Origin: a virus
Lineage: Duplodnaviria; Caudoviricetes
DNA: 64,000 nucleotides
Strand: one strand, 5' to 3'
IMG/VR virus record: IMGVR_UViG_3300010348_001841
Part shown: piece by piece, positions 425-40,485 of the stretch
Layout: each line of letters begins with the position of its first letter
How positions within the stretch are numbered: position 1 is the stretch's first letter
Position numbers and translations under genes: made by a program
The notes under the pieces: model-generated
What the model was told of the DNA's origin: nothing
The model's database searches: none
The model's input: only the letters and a program-made list of their open reading frames with translations

Positions 425-3400
425 TAATTGCCCTTCAACAATAATATTTCAGACTTTAAATAAGAAATTTCGTCTTTAAGTTCCTTGATTGCTTCCACAA
501 GCAAACCAACCATATTGCCATAGGCAACGCCTTTCATTCCCGAATCAGACTCTGTTACTACCTCCGGTAATACCTTTTCAACTTCCTGCGCAATGACACC
601 TGCATGACGGTTTTGATTTGCAGAATCTTTTCTTGTAAATGTTACACCTCTTATTGAGGAAACTTTATCAAGGGCATTAGTAATTACTTCAATGTTATCC
701 TTTACTCTTATATCCGAGAATGCAGTAATATCTCCGGTGGCAACAATGGTTCCTGCAGTTGTGTTTGATGTTCCTACACCAAGAGCATTCATCTGATAAT
801 TATTACCGGTATTCAACGAATTTGCTGTTGTCGCAGTAGTTGCGGTTGTCGCAGATGTTGCACTGGTTGCTGTTGCTGCATTTCCCGTGACATTTATTGA
901 CCATGTACCCGATGCACCAGTACCTGTTAGTGTTGGGGCAAAAGAATTATAGTTTGCACTGTCAAGAGGTGTATTTCCTGCAAAACTTGGACGATGCTCA
1001 AACCACCAACGACTGCCGTTATCATTATATACACGAGATTGAAGTGCTAGGTCCGAGCGATTCAACGAAATTGAGTACGGGCCATTGCTGTTTGTTGTCA
1101 ACAACAATGGCAAAACACCACCGGAATTGATTGTAACCGTATTGGCCGCGCTAACAGTTCCGCCGAGGGAGATTGAACCATTACTTGCTCCTAATGCAAG
1201 AGGTCTAGCGGTAGTTGTTTCTGCAGCATCTGTTACATCAATTGCTACACCCGATCCTGCTGGCTGAGATGCAATTCTCAGTCTGTCACCTGTTGTGGAA
1301 AGAGCACGGAAGACATAGTTGCCAGGTGAAACACCGCCACCGGAGTAAACACCTCCGCTTAGAGTCGAAATTCCGGTAACACCAAGAGTGCTGTTTATCT
1401 GCAAGGCACCGGTCATTGTATCACCGGCTTTCAGCACGTTGTTTGTAGCTGTAGTTGCTGTGGCAGCATTACCCGAAATAGAAATGTTGTATGTACCTGT
1501 CAACCTTGCAACAGGAACAGTACCTGTACCTAATGTCGATGCATCAAGATTTGTTACAGGGATAGAAATATTTGCTGTTCCATCGAAGCTTGTTGCTGTA
1601 CCTGTTGCACCACCGGAAATCGCAATTGTTCTTGCGGTCTGCAATGCTGTTGCAGTTGTTGCATTTCCGCTAATTGCACCAGAAAAGCCTGTGGCAGTAA
1701 GAATACCAGTTGACGGGTTGAATGTAAGTTTTGTCGAAGAAACTTTTAGTGGATTATTTCCAGATGTAGCATCAACCCACGCTAGATATTTTGTTGCATT
1801 AGTGGTTGTATCATCGGTTATCGCTGTATTTGTTGCGTTAGTAGCCGATGTTGCTGTAGTAGCGGTTGATGCATTTCCTGTTAGACTACCGACAAACGTT
1901 GTAGAAGTTACAGAGGTCAATCCTGCAAGTGTTGTAGAAGTTCCACCGAGTGCAATGTTAGTTGTACCAATTGTGACAGAACTATTGTTCAATGCAGCAT
2001 TAGGAATTCCTGTGAAATTTGTACCGGTCAATGTAGGTGTATTAGACCAAGATGGTGAGCTTGCTCCTCCCACCAACACCTGAGATGTTGTACCAGCTGC
2101 CAAAAACGTTGTCGTGTTCGAAGCAGATTGATATGGTAATGATCCTGTTGCGCCACCGGCAATATTTGTTGCGGTAGTGGCCGTCGGAACCGATCCTGTT
2201 ACAGAAACTGTAATATTGCCAGTTGATCCAGATAAACCAATATTTGAACCTGCTGTTAGACTTGTTACACCGGTATTCGTAATTGTCACATTTCCTGTTG
2301 CTGACGAAACAGAAATGCCCGAACCCGCAACATTACTTAGAACTCCTGTATTAGAAACAACAAGACCAGTAATATCGATGCCCGACCCGGCAGTATATGA
2401 AGCTGAGCCAGAAATTTGGGTAAATGCAATCAGAGATGTTCCTACTGTTATAGGATTAGGTGTTGTCACTGCCCACTGTGTATTTGCAAGCGTGCCATTT
2501 ACAATGAATGTGTAATCTCCAGACCTTAGCTCCGATGCCGGAGAACCATCCATATCTGCACTTCTGGTCAATATCCAAGGTGTAGAAACAGAACCTAAAT
2601 CGGTAACGACATAGATACCATTTTCTACTTGGTTTGACTGATCTTTGACAAGAACTCTATCATTCAATGAAAGACTTGCATAACCGCCTACTGTACCAAG
2701 AGCGCCGTTTGCGTTAGCAGTCAACGTTGCACCGACACCCGATGCACCATTATTATATGTTGAGGCTGGTAAGGCTGCTGTGGTAGATGTAACACAGGAT
2801 GCATGAACATTTAGGCCCATTGCAACCAAGTCTACGTATTGCTTTGTTGCCGCACCGAGTGCTGCTACTGGATCGGCGTTCAGGATCAGATATCCTGTCA
2901 TTGTATCGCCGGCAACATCTACTGGAGTGAAACCAAGTGCAGTTGTAATATCTGTTGGTGTGACCGATGACGTTGCAGTTACCAGGCCTTTACCGTTTAC
3001 TGTTACTTTTCTAAATGCATTTGTTTGCGGCGATGCATTTACTGTTGCAAGTGTTAGTGTATCAGTTACATCTGCTGATCCATCAAAGAGCACCGACCAA
3101 GTGGCATCACCTGTTGCAGTAATGTTTCTTGCTGTTGTCAACGATGCTGCTGATCCGGTGAATGTACCTACAAAGGTTGTGGCAGAAACAGATGATAATC
3201 CCGATAGTGATGTAAGAGTTCCACCTAATGCTATAGTAGAAGAACCAATAGTAATTGAATTATTTACAAGTCCGGAATTTGGAATACCTGTAAAATTTGT
3301 TCCTGTTAGAGTTGGTGCATTAGACCACGAAGGCGAACTTGCACCGCCGATTAGGACTTGAGATGTAGATCCGGCACCAAGAAACGATGTTGTTGATGTT

Positions 3401-32537: not shown

Positions 32538-34247
32538 TTATTGTTGACCAAAATTATCAATTTCGGAATCAGAAACACCCGGACCGCCATCGCTTGCAGG
32601 CATTTCTTCTTCAGCATCAGGCACCATTCCTTCAATGCCCGAACTTGTGATACCCACATCAGAAAGTCCTGCTGCTGGGCTGCTACCCGAGGTTTCTGGC
32701 GCAAAGGTCTTAGTAAGTCTGCTACGCTCTTCTTTCCACATGCGCTCGTTTTTCTCTAATTGAGCTTCGGTCCAACCTAAATATTCTGTAAGAATGTATC
32801 TCTTAGATACAAACGGAACGTCGAGCAATGCAGTGAAAGTGTTAATTCTTGCAGAGTCTAGTTCTAGCTTTCTATAATCTGAGAAAGATTGTGCTGGAGT
32901 AAATTTCAGGTTAAAGAGACTATTGTCAATTGTAATTCCACGACGCTTTAAGAAAAGCTTAAATTCTTCGTCAAGCGGTTCTACAACCTTATCTTGGTAT
33001 CTTGTCACAACCTTTGAAAAACGATATTCCTGCATGTATGCAGTGCCAAGTCTACCATCGTTTACTGTGGCTGTTCCATCCTCAGGGCCGGTCGGCAAAT
33101 AAGAACTCGGTACACCGAGGGCACGAAGCATCTTATTATTGAAATAGCGTAGATCGTCGATGTCTCCAAGATTTTCACCACCCGGAAGAACTTCAACCTT
33201 AGATCCACGCCCCTCGCTTGTTACAGCAAAGAAATAATCTTCAAGAATTGACATAGGATTATATGTCGAATCAACAATGTTTGCGCCACCACCGGTTCTG
33301 CTTGGAATACGTTTTTGTTGAACTTCATAACGAATACGTTCAAGGTACTGTTGAGCCTTGTTAGGAGGCATTGTACCGACGTCGATAAAGAAAACACGGC
33401 GTTCCGGAGCACGGTGTACACGATAAATCAAAATAGAATCTTCAAGCAATTCTTTTTGTTTGTAAACCTTGTAAATCTGTTCAAGGATACTCAAGCCAAA
33501 TGGCCAAGCAGCATTCATTCCATCTGTAAGGGAAAGATGAACAATGTGTTCAGCATCGACTGCCATTGCTCCACCATCTTGATAGTTTGCTGTTCCTGCA
33601 CCACCATAACCACCGGAAACATAATTCATATTTCCTTGCATAGGTGGAGAAAATACAATGCTGTTAGAACCAAATGCTTCGTTTGAAAGCTTGTTCAACT
33701 GGTTAGTTGCAACAAGGCTTTTCATGTTTAGATCAACATCCTTGATAAAATAACTTTCAATTTTTTTACCGTCGGACTCATTGACAATAACTTTTTCAAC
33801 CTTAGCCGGATCTATCCAGTAAAGTTCAAAAGTTTGCGGATCTCTTAGGAAAAACTGGTCTCCGTAAACCAATGTAGACCTAAACATTCCCCACAAACGC
33901 TTTGTTAGTTTGTTTAGTCTAATCCATTGCCCTAAAGATTTTTCAAGAATCTGAATTTCTGATGGTGTAGGTTCGTCGTTATATTCAATAACAAGTGGTA
34001 ACTTTGTTGTTTCGTCTAATTCGGTACCAAAGTCAGCAATTGTATCAAGGGCAGCGTGAATTTCATGATCAAAATTCATTTGATCATAAACTGCATATCG
34101 CTGTAATCTGTCGGGTGGGCCGGAATACACCTCCGGTAGCCAGTTGCTATATTTTGCAATAGATGCATAGGCAGATGTACTATCCACCACTCTCTGTTGC
34201 ACTGGTAGAACCGAATTTACCGGCTTGAAGAATTTTTTCCAGCTCAT
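32538..34247 (-). CDS. gp20: Portal vertex protein (gp20)
   Basis: LLEDSILIYRVHRAPERRVFFIDVGTMP, EDYFF, LPGGENLGDIDD. Confidence 0.97.
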   Translation of the reverse strand: MSWKKFFKPVNSVLPVQQRVVDSTSAYASIAKYSNWLPEVYSGPPDRLQRYAVYDQMNFDHEIHAALDTIADFGTELDETTKLPLVIEYNDEPTPSEIQILEKSLGQWIRLNKLTKRLWGMFRSTLVYGDQFFLRDPQTFELYWIDPAKVEKVIVNESDGKKIESYFIKDVDLNMKSLVATNQLNKLSNEAFGSNSIVFSPPMQGNMNYVSGGYGGAGTANYQDGGAMAVDAEHIVHLSLTDGMNAAWPFGLSILEQIYKVYKQKELLEDSILIYRVHRAPERRVFFIDVGTMPPNKAQQYLERIRYEVQQKRIPSRTGGGANIVDSTYNPMSILEDYFFAVTSEGRGSKVEVLPGGENLGDIDDLRYFNNKMLRALGVPSSYLPTGPEDGTATVNDGRLGTAYMQEYRFSKVVTRYQDKVVEPLDEEFKLFLKRRGITIDNSLFNLKFTPAQSFSDYRKLELDSARINTFTALLDVPFVSKRYILTEYLGWTEAQLEKNERMWKEERSRLTKTFAPETSGSSPAAGLSDVGITSSGIEGMVPDAEEEMPASDGGPGVSDSEIDNFGQQ

Positions 34248-36395: not shown

Positions 36396-37241
36396 ATGGA
36401 ACAAAATTTACAGCAAAATCCACTGAAGCAATATTTCAGAGCGTTCAAAATTTGGATGAGATTGCCAAGCGGTACATCATATTACCCGGAAGGTTCAATT
36501 GCATTCTCTGAAAAAGGCGAAATTGGCATTATGCAGATGACTGGTAAAGACGAACTTATCTTGCAGAATCCTGATGCATTGCTAAACGGAGAATCACTAA
36601 TCGAGGTTATTCAAAGTTGTGTACCTGCAGTAAAAAATCCAAGAATACTTCTAAGTAACGACATTGATGCATTGATTACTGCTATTAGATATTGCACATA
36701 CAACGATAGTCTTGAAACAAACTTAATCTGTCCTTCTTGTGGCACCGAAAATACCTTCAAACTCAATTTGCAACATGCTCTCGATCATATGGAATATTTA
36801 GAGCCAGAATATGTTGTAAATCTCGACACCGGTGTTAGTGTTTTTGTAAGACCTTATGCATTTCCAGAAATTCTCGAAGGACTTCAGGTAAGATTCGAGC
36901 AGACAAAAATTACAAGAGCAATGGAAAGCTCAAATATGTCAGACTCACAGAAGTCAGCAATATTCAACACCACCTTCAAGAAGATTGCCGAGACTACGTT
37001 CAACCTAATGGCGAACTCTGTTATAAAAGTTGTCGATGAATCAAGAAATATAAATGTTACCGACAAGAAATTTATCAAAGAATTTCTTTATAACATTGAT
37101 AAAGGCAGTGTTGATAAAATTAGTGATCTAATCAAAGAAATCAACGACATTGGAATAAAGAGAACATTCACAGCCAAATGTACAAAATGTGAGCATGAAT
37201 GGGAAAGTGAAATTGACTTCAATCCGGTAAATTTTTCGTAA
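36396..37241 (+). CDS. gp26: Baseplate hub assembly chaperone (T4 gp26-like)
   Basis: NPLKQYFR...LPSG...MTGKDE...DIDALITAIR; two CxxC pairs (CPSC, CTKC). Confidence 0.75.
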   Translation: MEQNLQQNPLKQYFRAFKIWMRLPSGTSYYPEGSIAFSEKGEIGIMQMTGKDELILQNPDALLNGESLIEVIQSCVPAVKNPRILLSNDIDALITAIRYCTYNDSLETNLICPSCGTENTFKLNLQHALDHMEYLEPEYVVNLDTGVSVFVRPYAFPEILEGLQVRFEQTKITRAMESSNMSDSQKSAIFNTTFKKIAETTFNLMANSVIKVVDESRNINVTDKKFIKEFLYNIDKGSVDKISDLIKEINDIGIKRTFTAKCTKCEHEWESEIDFNPVNFS

Positions 37242-37478: not shown

Positions 37479-38051
37479 ATGCATAAAAAGACTGATATCC
37501 AAGATTTAGACATCCCTAAGGATGATATTGAATGCTGGGAAAGATATCCTAAACATCATTGGGTATACGATCTTTCAAGATTGCTCGATGCTCAAAATAT
37601 AAAATGGAGTCCTTATGAGACTGAATCTCTGCCTGATAGAGAACTAAACATGAGCTTAGAGACATCACAGACATGTGTTCGTCAGCCCGGTTATATCTTT
37701 GTAAAAAAGCCAAATTTAGAGGCAACTATAACAGAAGTGTATGTTACAAAGGGGGAGATAAAACTCATGCGTCATATCGATTCTCTTACACGAAAAGAGT
37801 TACCCGGAATCAATGGCGAAATAGAACTACGCATTAGCGCATTTGTCACAATTTATTTTCAGAAGTTCACAGGAGTCATCTCAGTAGAGTCATTGGGATC
37901 TGATATCTATTCAATGCGCCTAAAGCCATACTCAGACCTATCCCAAGAAACAAATGCAGAAGTTATAAAACTCATAAAGCGCATGTTCAAGAAGACTGAA
38001 ACAGTAATCGGTCTGAAAGACCGAGCCCTTCATGAATCACTCGCTTCGTAA
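37479..38051 (+). CDS. Hypothetical protein, possibly degenerate ATP-grasp-like
   Basis: 190-aa ORF with RBS GAGG; IPKDDIECWERYPKHHWVYD...YIFVKKP resembles the N-terminus of a phage ATP-grasp-like family. Confidence 0.4.
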   Translation: MHKKTDIQDLDIPKDDIECWERYPKHHWVYDLSRLLDAQNIKWSPYETESLPDRELNMSLETSQTCVRQPGYIFVKKPNLEATITEVYVTKGEIKLMRHIDSLTRKELPGINGEIELRISAFVTIYFQKFTGVISVESLGSDIYSMRLKPYSDLSQETNAEVIKLIKRMFKKTETVIGLKDRALHESLAS

Positions 38052-38545
38052 ACTACGCTCGCAATTCATTTCGTGCTGTTTAGGAGAAAGAGAAGTTTTT
38101 TAGAAAATAATATTGACGGTGGAGTCAGAGAAAGGGTATCGTAGCAAAGCCTAAAAAGACAGTGCTACGATACCCTTCATCTTAGATACTTGACAGCATC
38201 ATCAGAGACTGAAACAGACTATTTTAGAAGCATTGGATTGATTATGTCAGCTTCTCGCTATTAGCGGCCTGTTAGGGGGACGAGTAAGACTACTTACACA
38301 AATCCTCGTGGTATATCGCAATTCCTCTTCAGCCAGTAATTGCACCACCTGCGGGCCATACCTTTCTTTCACATACCCACAGCAAATTTCATTTCACTTC
38401 ACTTACGTAGGATGCATGGTACAGCCTGGTCAAGGGTCCGTCCTATTTCTTTGAAGTTTGCCATTGCACACCCAATGGACCTGGCTGTTGCGCTCCATTC
38501 CGAACGACACGCCGGCGAAATTATTACCTTGGCTCGCCAACCTTT
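38008..38545 (-). ncRNA. Candidate large structured ncRNA (may extend to ~38780)
   Basis: Lies in a ~730 bp gap without a credible ORF; at least 8 helices, several needing G.U pairs that exist only on the minus strand (see findings). Confidence 0.55.
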
Positions 38546-38722
38546 ATTGTGATTTAGTAATTAGAAAAATTTGGATTTTATTTTTGAGACTTGGGTTTTG
38601 TGTATATAGAAAATTTTTGTGTAAACCTATACGCTGATGTCCTTGTACGTTCACGGGTCGCGTCACTCCCGCTATCTATTTTGAGTTATTGTGCTTGAAC
38701 AACTTTTTGTTGTTACACTATT

Positions 38723-38778
38723 TTAGCCCTGCGAGCAAGACAGGGCTAATAATTTTGGTCACAGCATTGCACTGTGAC
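38723..38778. other. Twin hairpins directly downstream of the lysozyme stop
   Basis: ttagccctg/cagggctaa (38723-38749) and gtcacag/ctgtgac (38758-38778). No U tract follows on the minus strand, so this is not a classical terminator for the lysozyme gene. Confidence 0.5.
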
Positions 38779-39360
38779 TTAGAACTCTCTTGTAGGATCT
38801 GAAACAAATGCTCGAAGTTCGTTTACGCGCCTCATCCAGCCATTGATAAATCTAGACTGCGAAGGATCCTTTGCTACAATGTTATTGTAGAATTGTTCAC
38901 GTTGGAGACATACAGACTCACAAAGAAGAAAAACATCAGCTTCGTTTGCTGCTTTGAGCGTTACAGGACCGATAGAACCATCGTCTGTTAGTCCAAGGGC
39001 ACGCTGCAAGAATTTTGCTGCTCTACCAGGGCCGCTATTCACTGCAATATCAAAATGTAGTGCTGCATAACGACCGGGCAATTGGTCACACTTTGATGCA
39101 AGCCAGTATTTCTTGTAATAGACATCTTTTGCTTCTGCCCATGTAAGATTTGTAATATCTAACTCTGGATTTGCATTTTTTGCAACACCAAATTTAGTTT
39201 CACCGCCACGATCGAGTGGGTCGTTAACATATCCTACGGCTTTTTTCTGTGCAGGTGTGGAGATTAGACCGGCCTCAACCTCTGGTGTTAATTTCCAGAA
39301 GCCACCGACTTCATACAACATTGCATGATCTACTGCTTTTTCGAATGCGGCTGAATACAT
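38779..39360 (-). CDS. Glycoside hydrolase family 108 lysozyme with peptidoglycan-binding domain
   Basis: YEVGG...YVNDPLDRGGETKFGV, FDIAVNSG, DGSIGPVTL, FINGWMRRV. Confidence 0.9.
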   Translation of the reverse strand: MYSAAFEKAVDHAMLYEVGGFWKLTPEVEAGLISTPAQKKAVGYVNDPLDRGGETKFGVAKNANPELDITNLTWAEAKDVYYKKYWLASKCDQLPGRYAALHFDIAVNSGPGRAAKFLQRALGLTDDGSIGPVTLKAANEADVFLLCESVCLQREQFYNNIVAKDPSQSRFINGWMRRVNELRAFVSDPTREF

Positions 39361-39404: not shown

Positions 39405-39422
39405 ATGAAAACAGGGGTTATA

Positions 39423-39989
39423 ATGCCATCAAAAAGTAAAGCAAAAGGTAATGCATGGGAATTAGAAGTTTCTAAATTTCTAACAGACACCTATGGTGAG
39501 ACGTTTATCAGAATACCGTCATCTGGTGCGTTTGTGGGTGGCAAGAATAATGTTCGAAAAGAGATGTTAGGCGACGCGCAACTACAGAGCAAGAAGGGTG
39601 ATATTCATCCACCACAAGATTGGAAACACTGGAATATAGAATGTAAAAGCTATGCCGATTTCCCATTTCATCAACTTTGGTATGCAGATGTAAAAATCCT
39701 CGACGCCTGGATTCAACAACAGAAGGACGTCGAGGATGAGGGGGATCTAAACTTGATCCTGATAAAAATTACTCGAAAAGAAAAGTGGATTGTGTTCCCG
39801 GCAACTCTAGAATTTCAAACTTCTCGCTCATTTCTATATAAGGGTTGGCAATTTGTTCATTGGGAAGATTTTTGGTCTCGTCCACAAAATCTGGCATTGG
39901 TGAAAAAATATTCGGTAGAAGGTGTGGATTTAACTGATAAAATTTCTCATCAGTCATCTGAGACAATTCATCAAATGAGTCCAGCCTAA
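39423..39989 (+). CDS. Holliday-junction resolvase-like PD-(D/E)xK nuclease
   Basis: MPSKSKAKGNAWELEV...GDI...IECKSY; probable start 39423 (track start 39405). Confidence 0.75.
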   Translation: MPSKSKAKGNAWELEVSKFLTDTYGETFIRIPSSGAFVGGKNNVRKEMLGDAQLQSKKGDIHPPQDWKHWNIECKSYADFPFHQLWYADVKILDAWIQQQKDVEDEGDLNLILIKITRKEKWIVFPATLEFQTSRSFLYKGWQFVHWEDFWSRPQNLALVKKYSVEGVDLTDKISHQSSETIHQMSPA

Positions 39990-40485
39990 ACTTTTCAAAC
40001 TGGTTAAAGTATCCAATCTTTGAATCTTTATATTTCTTTGGGCGCTTTTTACTCCAGGTAATAATGTAGCGTTTCTTACCTGCATTTTGCCCATAGCATT
40101 CTCTTGCCATGGACTTAGCATAATATTCTGGCAGATATAAAAAGGAAACCGCTTCGGGAGAAATAGGATTAAAAATAGTTAATCTAATAGATCCCATTTT
40201 ACCTTCTACATTTCCAATTTCAGCCTTGCCTGTTTTTATATTGACAGTTCCTGTCTTTGAATCCGAATTATCGATATCATTGAAGTCGCGACCAGCTTCG
40301 TCAACAAAATCAAATTTTCCAGATTTAGCAATACTATGCTCTATGAGATTTTCTACATCTAATGCCTTAGGATAATTTTCTAATATTTTCAATGCACATT
40401 CCTGCATTAATATATCTTTAAAAATATCGAGCTTCTTAAAGATAATCTCGCGCATTAGTATTTGATGTTTTGTTGTATTATTCAT
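39769..40485 (-). CDS. Hypothetical protein, possible nuclease
   Basis: 238-aa ORF coupled to the gp46 stop; VDEAGRDFNDIDNSDSK is weakly PD-(D/E)xK-like. Confidence 0.45.
   Translation of the reverse strand: MNNTTKHQILMREIIFKKLDIFKDILMQECALKILENYPKALDVENLIEHSIAKSGKFDFVDEAGRDFNDIDNSDSKTGTVNIKTGKAEIGNVEGKMGSIRLTIFNPISPEAVSFLYLPEYYAKSMARECYGQNAGKKRYIITWSKKRPKKYKDSKIGYFNQFEKFRLDSFDELSQMTDEKFYQLNPHLLPNIFSPMPDFVDETKNLPNEQIANPYIEMSEKFEILELPGTQSTFLFE

Follow-up and report, generated by a model that had tools for sequence, protein, structure and literature searches.

A new class of large structured RNA in T4-like jumbo phages, very probably encoded by a stand-alone gene

Introduction

To our knowledge, few bacterial or phage RNAs longer than ~400 nucleotides (nt) have helices supported by covariation and invariant unpaired nucleotides at the density seen in the one described here: the list comprises rRNA, RNase P RNA, group I and group II introns, tmRNA, OLE, GOLLD, ROOL, raiA and HEARO. 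Nearly all of these large RNAs have proved to be catalysts, cores of RNA–protein complexes or, lately, RNA-only cages. Our subject is a gene-free gap between an endolysin gene and the end of a convergent gene for a 190-amino-acid protein, in a 64,000-nt stretch of viral DNA (IMG/VR record IMGVR_UViG_3300010348_001841; ‘the window’) that is part of a T4-like myovirus genome, and the structured RNA that the minus strand of this gap encodes. This RNA represents a new class among the large, structured RNAs of phages, and it matches no known family.

Among the closest described systems, ROOL and GOLLD form RNA-only homo-oligomeric cages (PMC12286853). They are ~600–800 nt long, are frequent in phages and prophages and have no tie to a downstream gene. 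The RNA described here resembles them in being large, ornate, multi-helix and pseudoknotted, with conserved unpaired nucleotides. Unlike ROOL and GOLLD, which often adjoin tRNA genes, it has no adjacent tRNA gene in the window or at six homologous loci; it also differs in its carriers, which are T4-like jumbo phages related to the PA5oct lineage, and in having an A/C-rich linker and a co-varying direct repeat. Phage PA5oct has four untranslated transcripts defined by RNA-seq (ncRNA001–004, 236–619 nt; PMC7318152); these differ from the present RNA in lying at other genome positions, and no structure has been described for them.

Results and discussion

A gene-free gap with a conserved minus-strand fold

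A sequence-only reading of the window had proposed a large, ornate, undescribed phage non-coding RNA of the GOLLD/ROOL size class on the minus strand of the gap, and massive covariation in syntenic relatives, together with the absence of any Rfam match, bears this out. All coordinates given here are positions in the window, and the RNA features lie on its minus strand. The gap (38052–38778), which that reading had called gene-free, holds no open reading frame (ORF) above 70 amino acids, and most of the inverted repeats listed there are present at the positions given.

RNAalifold, applied to 29 non-redundant sequences, returned 79 base pairs, 52 of which show compensatory double changes. The final structure, obtained by manual curation of this output on 29 distinct sequences, has 87 pairs in 17 helices, including one 5′ pseudoknot. 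The curated pairs are standard in 95.8% of 2482 cells, as compared with 34–44% when their 3′ partners are slid by 1–3 columns, and changes on both sides of a pair were found at 67 pairs in 384 cells (a count of cells rather than of independent events); none of 500 shuffles reached any of these measures. The middle domain alone contributes 33 pairs, 27 of them compensatory, with 95.2% paired versus 35–46% when slid. Helices listed in the earlier reading recur here with compensatory changes: 38349–55/38376–82 corresponds to H9, 38308–23/38338–48 to H10, an inner ccattg/caatgg to H6 and gtaag/cttac at 38284–97 to the apical hairpin of H11. Two pairings, a long-range CGC/GYG proposed by RNAalifold and the earlier reading’s GUU/GGC extension of H3, were dropped because covariation did not support them.

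The strand of the RNA can be read from its wobble pairs. Across the family there are 279 G.U pairs versus 31 A.C pairs, and in the window 10 versus 1, which fixes the minus strand as that of the RNA; the strand polarity proposed for the window alone thus holds for the family. Consistent with this, the minus-strand RNA folds at −204.8 kcal/mol (z = −4.2, with none of 20 shuffles equalling it), as compared with z = −2.2 for the plus strand, and the two covariance models built here match the window on the minus strand only (R1, middle domain, 113.6 bits; R2, 3′ domain, 101.7 bits).

Another explanation would be a protein gene or pseudogene that ORF calling had overlooked, and some relatives do have plus-strand ORFs of 90–119 amino acids in the gap (stop-free up to 155 codons). 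These ORFs lie at differing places and in differing frames, however; stretches free of stop codons range in length from 42 to 155 codons across the family and are found at non-homologous places, the conserved blocks lack codon periodicity, and indels are frequent and are not multiples of three. The covariation of the helices explains the conservation, and we regard the chance of a coding origin as negligible. The region has the generic marks of a structured non-coding RNA, namely compensatory helices, strand-specific wobbles and no conserved reading frame. We conclude that ~38000–38725 (minus strand) is very probably a stand-alone gene for a highly structured non-coding RNA of ~0.7 kb, for which we propose action in trans as a folded particle.

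Conservation and distribution

A search with the 190-amino-acid protein found 21 loci in viral contigs (48–66% amino acid identity). At every one of them a gap of 620–960 bp separates its gene from the endolysin gene, and all 21 gaps match that of the window, with 65–85% DNA identity. An invariant 21-mer of the gap retrieved 42 IMG/VR loci, and a second viral pattern added just two more members among 40 new loci; ~45 related IMG/VR contigs carry the gap. At least 10 loci were confirmed in metagenome contigs among the matches listed, some of them duplicates of viral contigs. Four carriers are complete genomes of 363–385 kb with direct terminal repeats. In all 13 comparisons made, nucleotide identity was higher in the RNA core (73–84%) than in the protein gene next to it (66–72%).

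The RNA family appears so far to be confined to uncultured T4-like jumbo phages. A blastn search of 50,697 isolate phage genomes (INPHARED), with the window region and a short-form homologue as queries, gave no match, and no bacterial genome was found among the listed 17-mer matches in genome contigs, most of which are chance matches. In PA5oct, the covariance models R1 and R2 found no homologue in the whole genome, and an nhmmer profile found none at the syntenic locus, to which that search was confined. The syntenic region of PA5oct (L068:6529–8041; NC_071039.1, ~75.7–77.2 kb) is a ~1.5-kb interval in which the only annotated ORFs are of 38–50 amino acids; it lies between a RusA-like resolvase gene and the hypothetical gene that follows the baseplate hub gene, has no homology to the RNA and is not one of the four published PA5oct non-coding RNAs.

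Comparison with described RNAs

At the gathering score, Rfam 15 (4227 families) had no match to the window or to seven homologous loci, and lenient searches of the window region and of seven further loci (E ≤ 10) returned nothing recurrent, only isolated rows for miRNAs and small RNAs at chance level. GOLLD (RF01998) and ROOL (RF03087) likewise gave no covariance-model match on the window or on seven homologous loci, even at E ≤ 10. ARAGORN found no tRNA or tmRNA in the 64-kb window or at six homologous loci, and RNase P RNA, tmRNA, 6S RNA and phi29 pRNA were without a covariance-model or ARAGORN match. The omega RNA of IscB and TnpB (HEARO, RF02033) gave no covariance-model match either, and the neighbours of the RNA locus (baseplate hub, 190-amino-acid protein, GH108 endolysin and PDDEXK nuclease) include no IscB, TnpB, reverse transcriptase or integrase. 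In the literature that we found, the RNA is described nowhere; a 2023 IMG/VR catalogue of 10,006 candidates consists of motifs of 29–151 nt and could contain fragments of it.

Group I introns abound in T4-like phages, and the RNA resembles these in size, lineage, multi-domain fold and invariant junction nucleotides. The motif GGUUCAGAGUCU / GGUUCAACGUCU also resembles the group I ‘R’ element. The RNA could be a group I-like ribozyme that has degenerated or become free-standing, or else the remnant of some other mobile intron, with its repeats as former splice or insertion junctions; short direct repeats do flank a hairpin-bearing segment, and genes resembling NUMOD3 homing endonucleases lie near the second type of copy described below. 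Nevertheless, no Rfam model of a group I intron (RF00028 and subtypes), a group II intron or a ribozyme scores at E ≤ 10 on the window or on seven homologues. There is no interrupted host gene and there are no exons, the element lying between the endolysin hairpin and the end of the convergent ORF. Nor is a P3/P7 pseudoknot supported: the P7-like pairing lacks support from covariation, and the P3-like partner UCGCC covaries instead with a strand of H3. We give this explanation only a slight chance.

Architecture of the RNA

The layout of the locus is summarized in Table 1. Directly after the endolysin stop codon lies a hairpin; at this position relatives have a G+C-rich hairpin followed by a U-run, so 38758–38778 is likely to be the end of the endolysin transcript. 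The promoter-like element that follows, with a −10-like TAAAAT at 38720–38725, occurs once per locus and always in the same place, its span being fixed in every pattern-matched locus (~20 distinct sequences), and the motif was not found elsewhere in the window; the element is a putative promoter. We infer a transcript of ~720 nt, starting ~7 nt past TAAAAT at ~38718, just downstream of the endolysin terminator, and ending at ~38000. The element outlined earlier at 38008–38778 almost coincides with this transcript, its 5′ boundary being corrected to ~38718.

Table 1. Features of the RNA locus, its flanking genes and its paralogues (positions in the window, except where a contig precedes them).
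Feature	Position	Strand	Remarks
gp20 portal gene	32538–34247	minus	
gp26-type baseplate hub gene	36396–37241	plus	
190-amino-acid ORF	37479–38051	plus	position of T4 gp51
GH108/PG_binding_3 endolysin gene	38779–39360	minus	
Hairpin after endolysin stop	38758..38778	minus	GUCACAG-UGCAAUG-CUGUGAC
Promoter-like element	38719..38757	minus	CAAnAUUrUn, 20 variable nt, (g/a)(c/a)TAAAATA; 39-nt span invariant
H1, 5′-terminal hairpin	38698..38714	minus	AACAA/UUGUU; G-C to A-U exchange in 8/29
H2 hairpin and H-type pseudoknot	38631..38672	minus	H2 = 38668–72/38653–57
Linker	38547..38630	minus	A/C-rich, G-poor, conserved AAACCCAAnUCU motif; length variable, predicted unpaired
Core, ~440 nt	38107–38546	minus	H3–H14; 14 or more helices in all; invariant loops
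5′ core	38388..38546	minus	H3–H8
H3	38533–37/38515–19	minus	
H4	38511–13/38483–85	minus	
H5	38502–06/38491–95	minus	
H6	38473–78/38461–66	minus	
H7	38452–57/38396–401	minus	
H8	38441–45/38409–13	minus	
Middle domain	38275..38391	minus	H9, long H10, H11 with variable apical hairpin
3′ domain	38107..38281	minus	three-way junction H12–H13–H14, 3′ hairpin, GAUACCCUU..UCUGACUCC
H12	38267–72/38214–19	minus	
H14 region	38227–38254	minus	
Repeat copy 1	38189..38208	minus	UCUCUG-AUGAUGCU-GUCAAG
3′ hairpin, long form	38127..38182	minus	20-bp stem
Repeat copy 2	38112..38131	minus	UCUCUG-ACUCCACC-GUCAAU
3′ tail, ~110 nt	37996..38111	minus	antisense to last ~17 codons of 190-amino-acid ORF
Type-2 copy	L049:8949–9396		
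Type-2 copy	L313:~1330–1762		
Type-2 copy	L314:1338–~1790		

The 5′ leader contains two conserved hairpins. In H2, one pair is compensatory in 13 of the 29 sequences, and its loop ACGC (38660–63) pairs with GCGU (38631–34) to form the pseudoknot, which becomes AUGC/GCAU in four sequences. The A-rich tract that follows had been taken for an upstream leader; it is instead an internal linker, as the conserved hairpin and the pseudoknot lie 5′ of it.

In the 5′ core, a 9-bp stem had been read at 38511–19/38533–41. Its five pairs 38533–37/38515–19 are real and form H3, but GGC at 38511–13 pairs with GCC at 38483–85 in H4, a re-pairing shown by the variants GAC/GUC, GUC/GAC and AUC/GGU. The 11-bp stem read at 38421–31/38478–88 competes with H4 and needs an insertion (~38414–38440) that is limited to the window’s subgroup.

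Conservation is highest in unpaired nucleotides. The apex of H9 (GUAUGUGAAA...GGUAUGG) is near-invariant, as is the 3′ segment GAUACCCUU(K)(N)UCUGACUCC, and the 18-nt loop of H14, UGACAUAAUCAAUCCAAY, is invariant in type-1 copies (those of the kind present in the window) and almost so in paralogues. The 3′ hairpin takes its long form in the window’s subgroup and in the paralogues; elsewhere it is a 5-bp UAUCC/GGAUA, in which C-G to U-A exchanges occur in four sequences of different subgroups. The perfect stem noted at 38132–46/38163–77 is present and spans 15–20 bp (38127–46/38163–82), but it represents a lineage-specific extension of this conserved short hairpin.

The 3′ tail ends in a hairpin at 38008–38024 (CGGUCU-UUC-AGACCG) followed by a U-rich run, which together form a terminator-like site on the minus strand. 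The hairpin, already noticed as 38008–14/38018–24, is kept in 25 of 28 relatives with compensatory changes, from CGGUCU/AGACCG through UGGUCU/AGACCA to UGGUCC/GGACCA; this conservation and the U-rich run make it a likely terminator. The hairpin overlaps G-L-K/T-D codons of the 190-amino-acid ORF, where the compensatory changes couple an amino acid change with a synonymous change, a pairing which indicates that selection at the RNA level overlaps the coding sequence.

Around the stop codon of the same ORF, tandem copies of ACGAAGCG(A/G)GU are found (38030–38051 in the coding sequence, 38052–38090 just outside), and the end of the element quoted earlier as GCGAGCG...GAAGCGAG corresponds to these copies. 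The ORF-internal ACGAAGCG copy lies within a small ACGAA/UUCGU hairpin in most relatives, which is broken in the window (UUCAU). This hairpin differs from the stem read earlier at 38032–40/38061–69, which spans the end of the ORF.

A second, divergent copy

In three of the four complete genomes the RNA is present in another, divergent copy as well (type 2), which scores 75–89 bits with R1 and 52–62 bits with R2. The type-2 copies lie at a distance from type 1, in a conserved gene order of an NT5C-like nucleotidase gene and/or a 162-amino-acid ORF, the RNA and a convergent phoH gene, with a small ORF between the last two in two genomes; NUMOD3 endonuclease-like genes and a clamp loader gene are nearby. 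The 162-amino-acid ORF is P-loop kinase-like in one of these genomes (L049), and that of another (L314) has no Pfam match. All domains of the core are kept in type 2, while the promoter-like element, H1, H2, the pseudoknot and the linker are absent. As type 2 keeps the core without the leader, it is the core that forms the functional unit, to which the leader is an accessory in the stand-alone copy.

One further locus (L013:4574–5367, minus strand) shares the promoter-like element and the whole leader (H1, H2/pseudoknot and linker), followed by a body of ~450 nt that is missed by both R1 and R2 and that has no Rfam match under lenient conditions (E ≤ 5). Its end is similar (GAUACCC...UGACUUCAAUAUCAGG), and it contains a direct repeat of its own, CAGGCAAAGU, present twice. 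This locus may represent a third type that has diverged very far, or one in which the shared leader now precedes a different cargo.

The genomic contexts of the two types bear on whether the RNA acts on its neighbours, either in cis, as a structured 3′ untranslated region or the processed end of the lysis transcript, or as an antisense regulator of the convergent 190-amino-acid gene. Type-1 RNA is always accompanied by the 190-amino-acid gene, PA5oct has neither, the tail of the RNA is complementary to the end of that ORF with the shared hairpin conserved, and the type-2 copies likewise end facing a convergent gene, phoH. Antisense control needs complementarity, however; it would not call for 17 conserved helices or for invariant loops at a distance from the overlap. 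The RNA is set apart from the endolysin gene by a terminator-like hairpin and a separate promoter-like element, and type-2 copies have the same core beside different genes. We therefore consider regulation of a neighbour, in cis or by antisense pairing, very unlikely.

A direct repeat that changes in parallel

A direct repeat of ~20 nt flanks the 3′ hairpin and has the form UCU(C)UG, 7–8 variable nt, (C)nGUCAAG. Its two copies change together across the family: the right half is GUUAAG twice in two sequences (L063, L034) and CCCAAA twice in another (L054), with near-parallel arms in two more (GGCAAG/GGCAGG in L065, GGUGGC/GGUGUU in L048). In the paralogues the left half is UCUGUG twice (L049), UCUAUAU twice (L313) or UCUAUGG twice (L314). 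The identity of the six-base arms averages 5.41 of 6 within genomes, as compared with 4.43 ± 0.11 between genomes, a difference reached in none of 5000 permutations. An internal complement of the variant arms (CCCAAA, GGUGGC, GGCAAG and others) was sought, and none was consistent. Such parallel, non-complementary covariation would be the pattern expected of two sites for one co-evolving partner that binds the RNA, or that binds the DNA with the repeats as iterons.

The latter possibility belongs to a different account of the locus, a replication origin with a structured pre-primer RNA, in which a promoter fires into an A/T-rich unwinding tract, a persistent hybrid forms and the repeats are bound by an initiator. 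An origin of this kind would resemble ColE1 RNA II or the oriE and oriF transcripts of T4. Like those transcripts, the RNA is untranslated and several hundred nt long, with folded domains, a dedicated promoter (here a predicted one) and an A/T-rich tract downstream of it; the promoter-like element is followed by ~85 bp of ~75% A+T, the repeats evolve in concert as iterons might, and replication and recombination genes are nearby (gp46/47 and a RusA-like or PDDEXK resolvase for type 1, a clamp loader for type 2). Genomes can carry more than one copy, as T4 has several origins, and in one complete genome (G001, 385,394 bp) the coding strand undergoes a major switch ~5 kb from the type-1 locus.

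Other observations argue against an origin. Selection acts on intramolecular helices over ~600 nt, far beyond the needs of a primer, and conserved helices are far more numerous than in ColE1 RNA II or the T4 origin transcripts; no antisense partner like RNA I was seen. The A/T-rich tract is the least conserved part of the RNA, variable in both length and sequence, and it is absent from the type-2 copies together with the promoter element. The repeat has just two copies, 85–130 nt apart. In G001, the cumulative GC skew falls monotonically and tracks the coding strand, the sole large plus-strand block (200–240 kb) starting ~5 kb from the type-1 RNA, with no inflection at either RNA locus. The proposal of an R-loop primer or origin, raised earlier as an alternative, thus gains nothing from the family, and we judge an origin to be unlikely.

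How the RNA may act

We propose that the RNA functions in trans, as a particle with a precise fold that serves as a scaffold or an RNA–protein machine, rather than as a regulator of a neighbouring gene. The invariant single-stranded loops would be its functional surface, and the two arms that flank the 3′ hairpin, identical and co-varying, would dock two copies of a single partner that evolves with them, be it a protein dimer or a nucleic acid. Catalysis by a new ribozyme and RNA-only multimerization, as in ROOL and GOLLD, would be special cases of this mechanism. Several considerations point towards a folded particle: conservation peaks in unpaired nucleotides; the core can move from one genomic context to another; no gene lies downstream for the RNA to regulate; and other RNAs of such size and complexity are nearly all machines or assemblies (ROOL, GOLLD and OLE; PMC12286853). 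Taken on its own, and by analogy with those RNAs, the mechanism is offered tentatively, at somewhat less than an even chance. A more specific form of it, a new giant-phage RNA machine (a ribozyme, or a self-assembling or protein-scaffolding particle) whose arms would dock two copies of a target, and which would exist in a late-region version with promoter and leader and in a phoH-side version, is slightly less likely still.

Several points weigh against a stand-alone RNA acting as a folded particle. The carriers belong to few clades, so that the cell counts given above exceed the number of independent events. In the 3′ domain, the most conserved part, the proposed pairings GAGUC/GACUC (P7-like), UCAGA/UCUGA and CUUGGU/GUCAAG lack support from covariation. 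The promoter, the transcript ends and expression itself are deduced from conserved sequence, every carrier phage is uncultured, and the claim of function rests on analogy. Finally, the adjacent 190-amino-acid protein has a low-confidence predicted model with weak ATP-grasp-like matches only.

A further class of this kind, unrelated to those known, limited to T4-like jumbo phages and often duplicated within a genome, would give RNA structural biology a new object of study and would be a hint of an unrecognized step in giant-phage infection. With an alignment, two covariance models, predicted ends and arms that covary in parallel, the RNA can be synthesized and tested directly, which does not depend on a cultured carrier.

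Neighbouring genes

Judged by the portal protein, the nearest isolates are those of the Pseudomonas jumbo phage PA5oct group (58% amino acid identity), followed by Atu_ph07 and Phosso. Besides the genes in Table 1, the window encodes a PDDEXK/RusA-like nuclease, a gp46/gp47 SbcCD-like recombination nuclease and a gp55-like late sigma factor.

The 190-amino-acid protein belongs to no family in Pfam, PHROGs or NCBIfam, and tblastn against isolate phages gave no match. Its AlphaFold2 model has a mean confidence (predicted local distance difference test) of 66, and Foldseek returned rows only above E 1e-3, to ATP-grasp enzymes with template modelling scores of 0.3–0.4, which are unusable as evidence.

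The PDDEXK/RusA-like ORF (39405–39989, plus strand) and a 238-amino-acid ORF (39769–40485, minus strand) overlap by ~220 bp on opposite strands, and one start or end in this pair has probably been miscalled.

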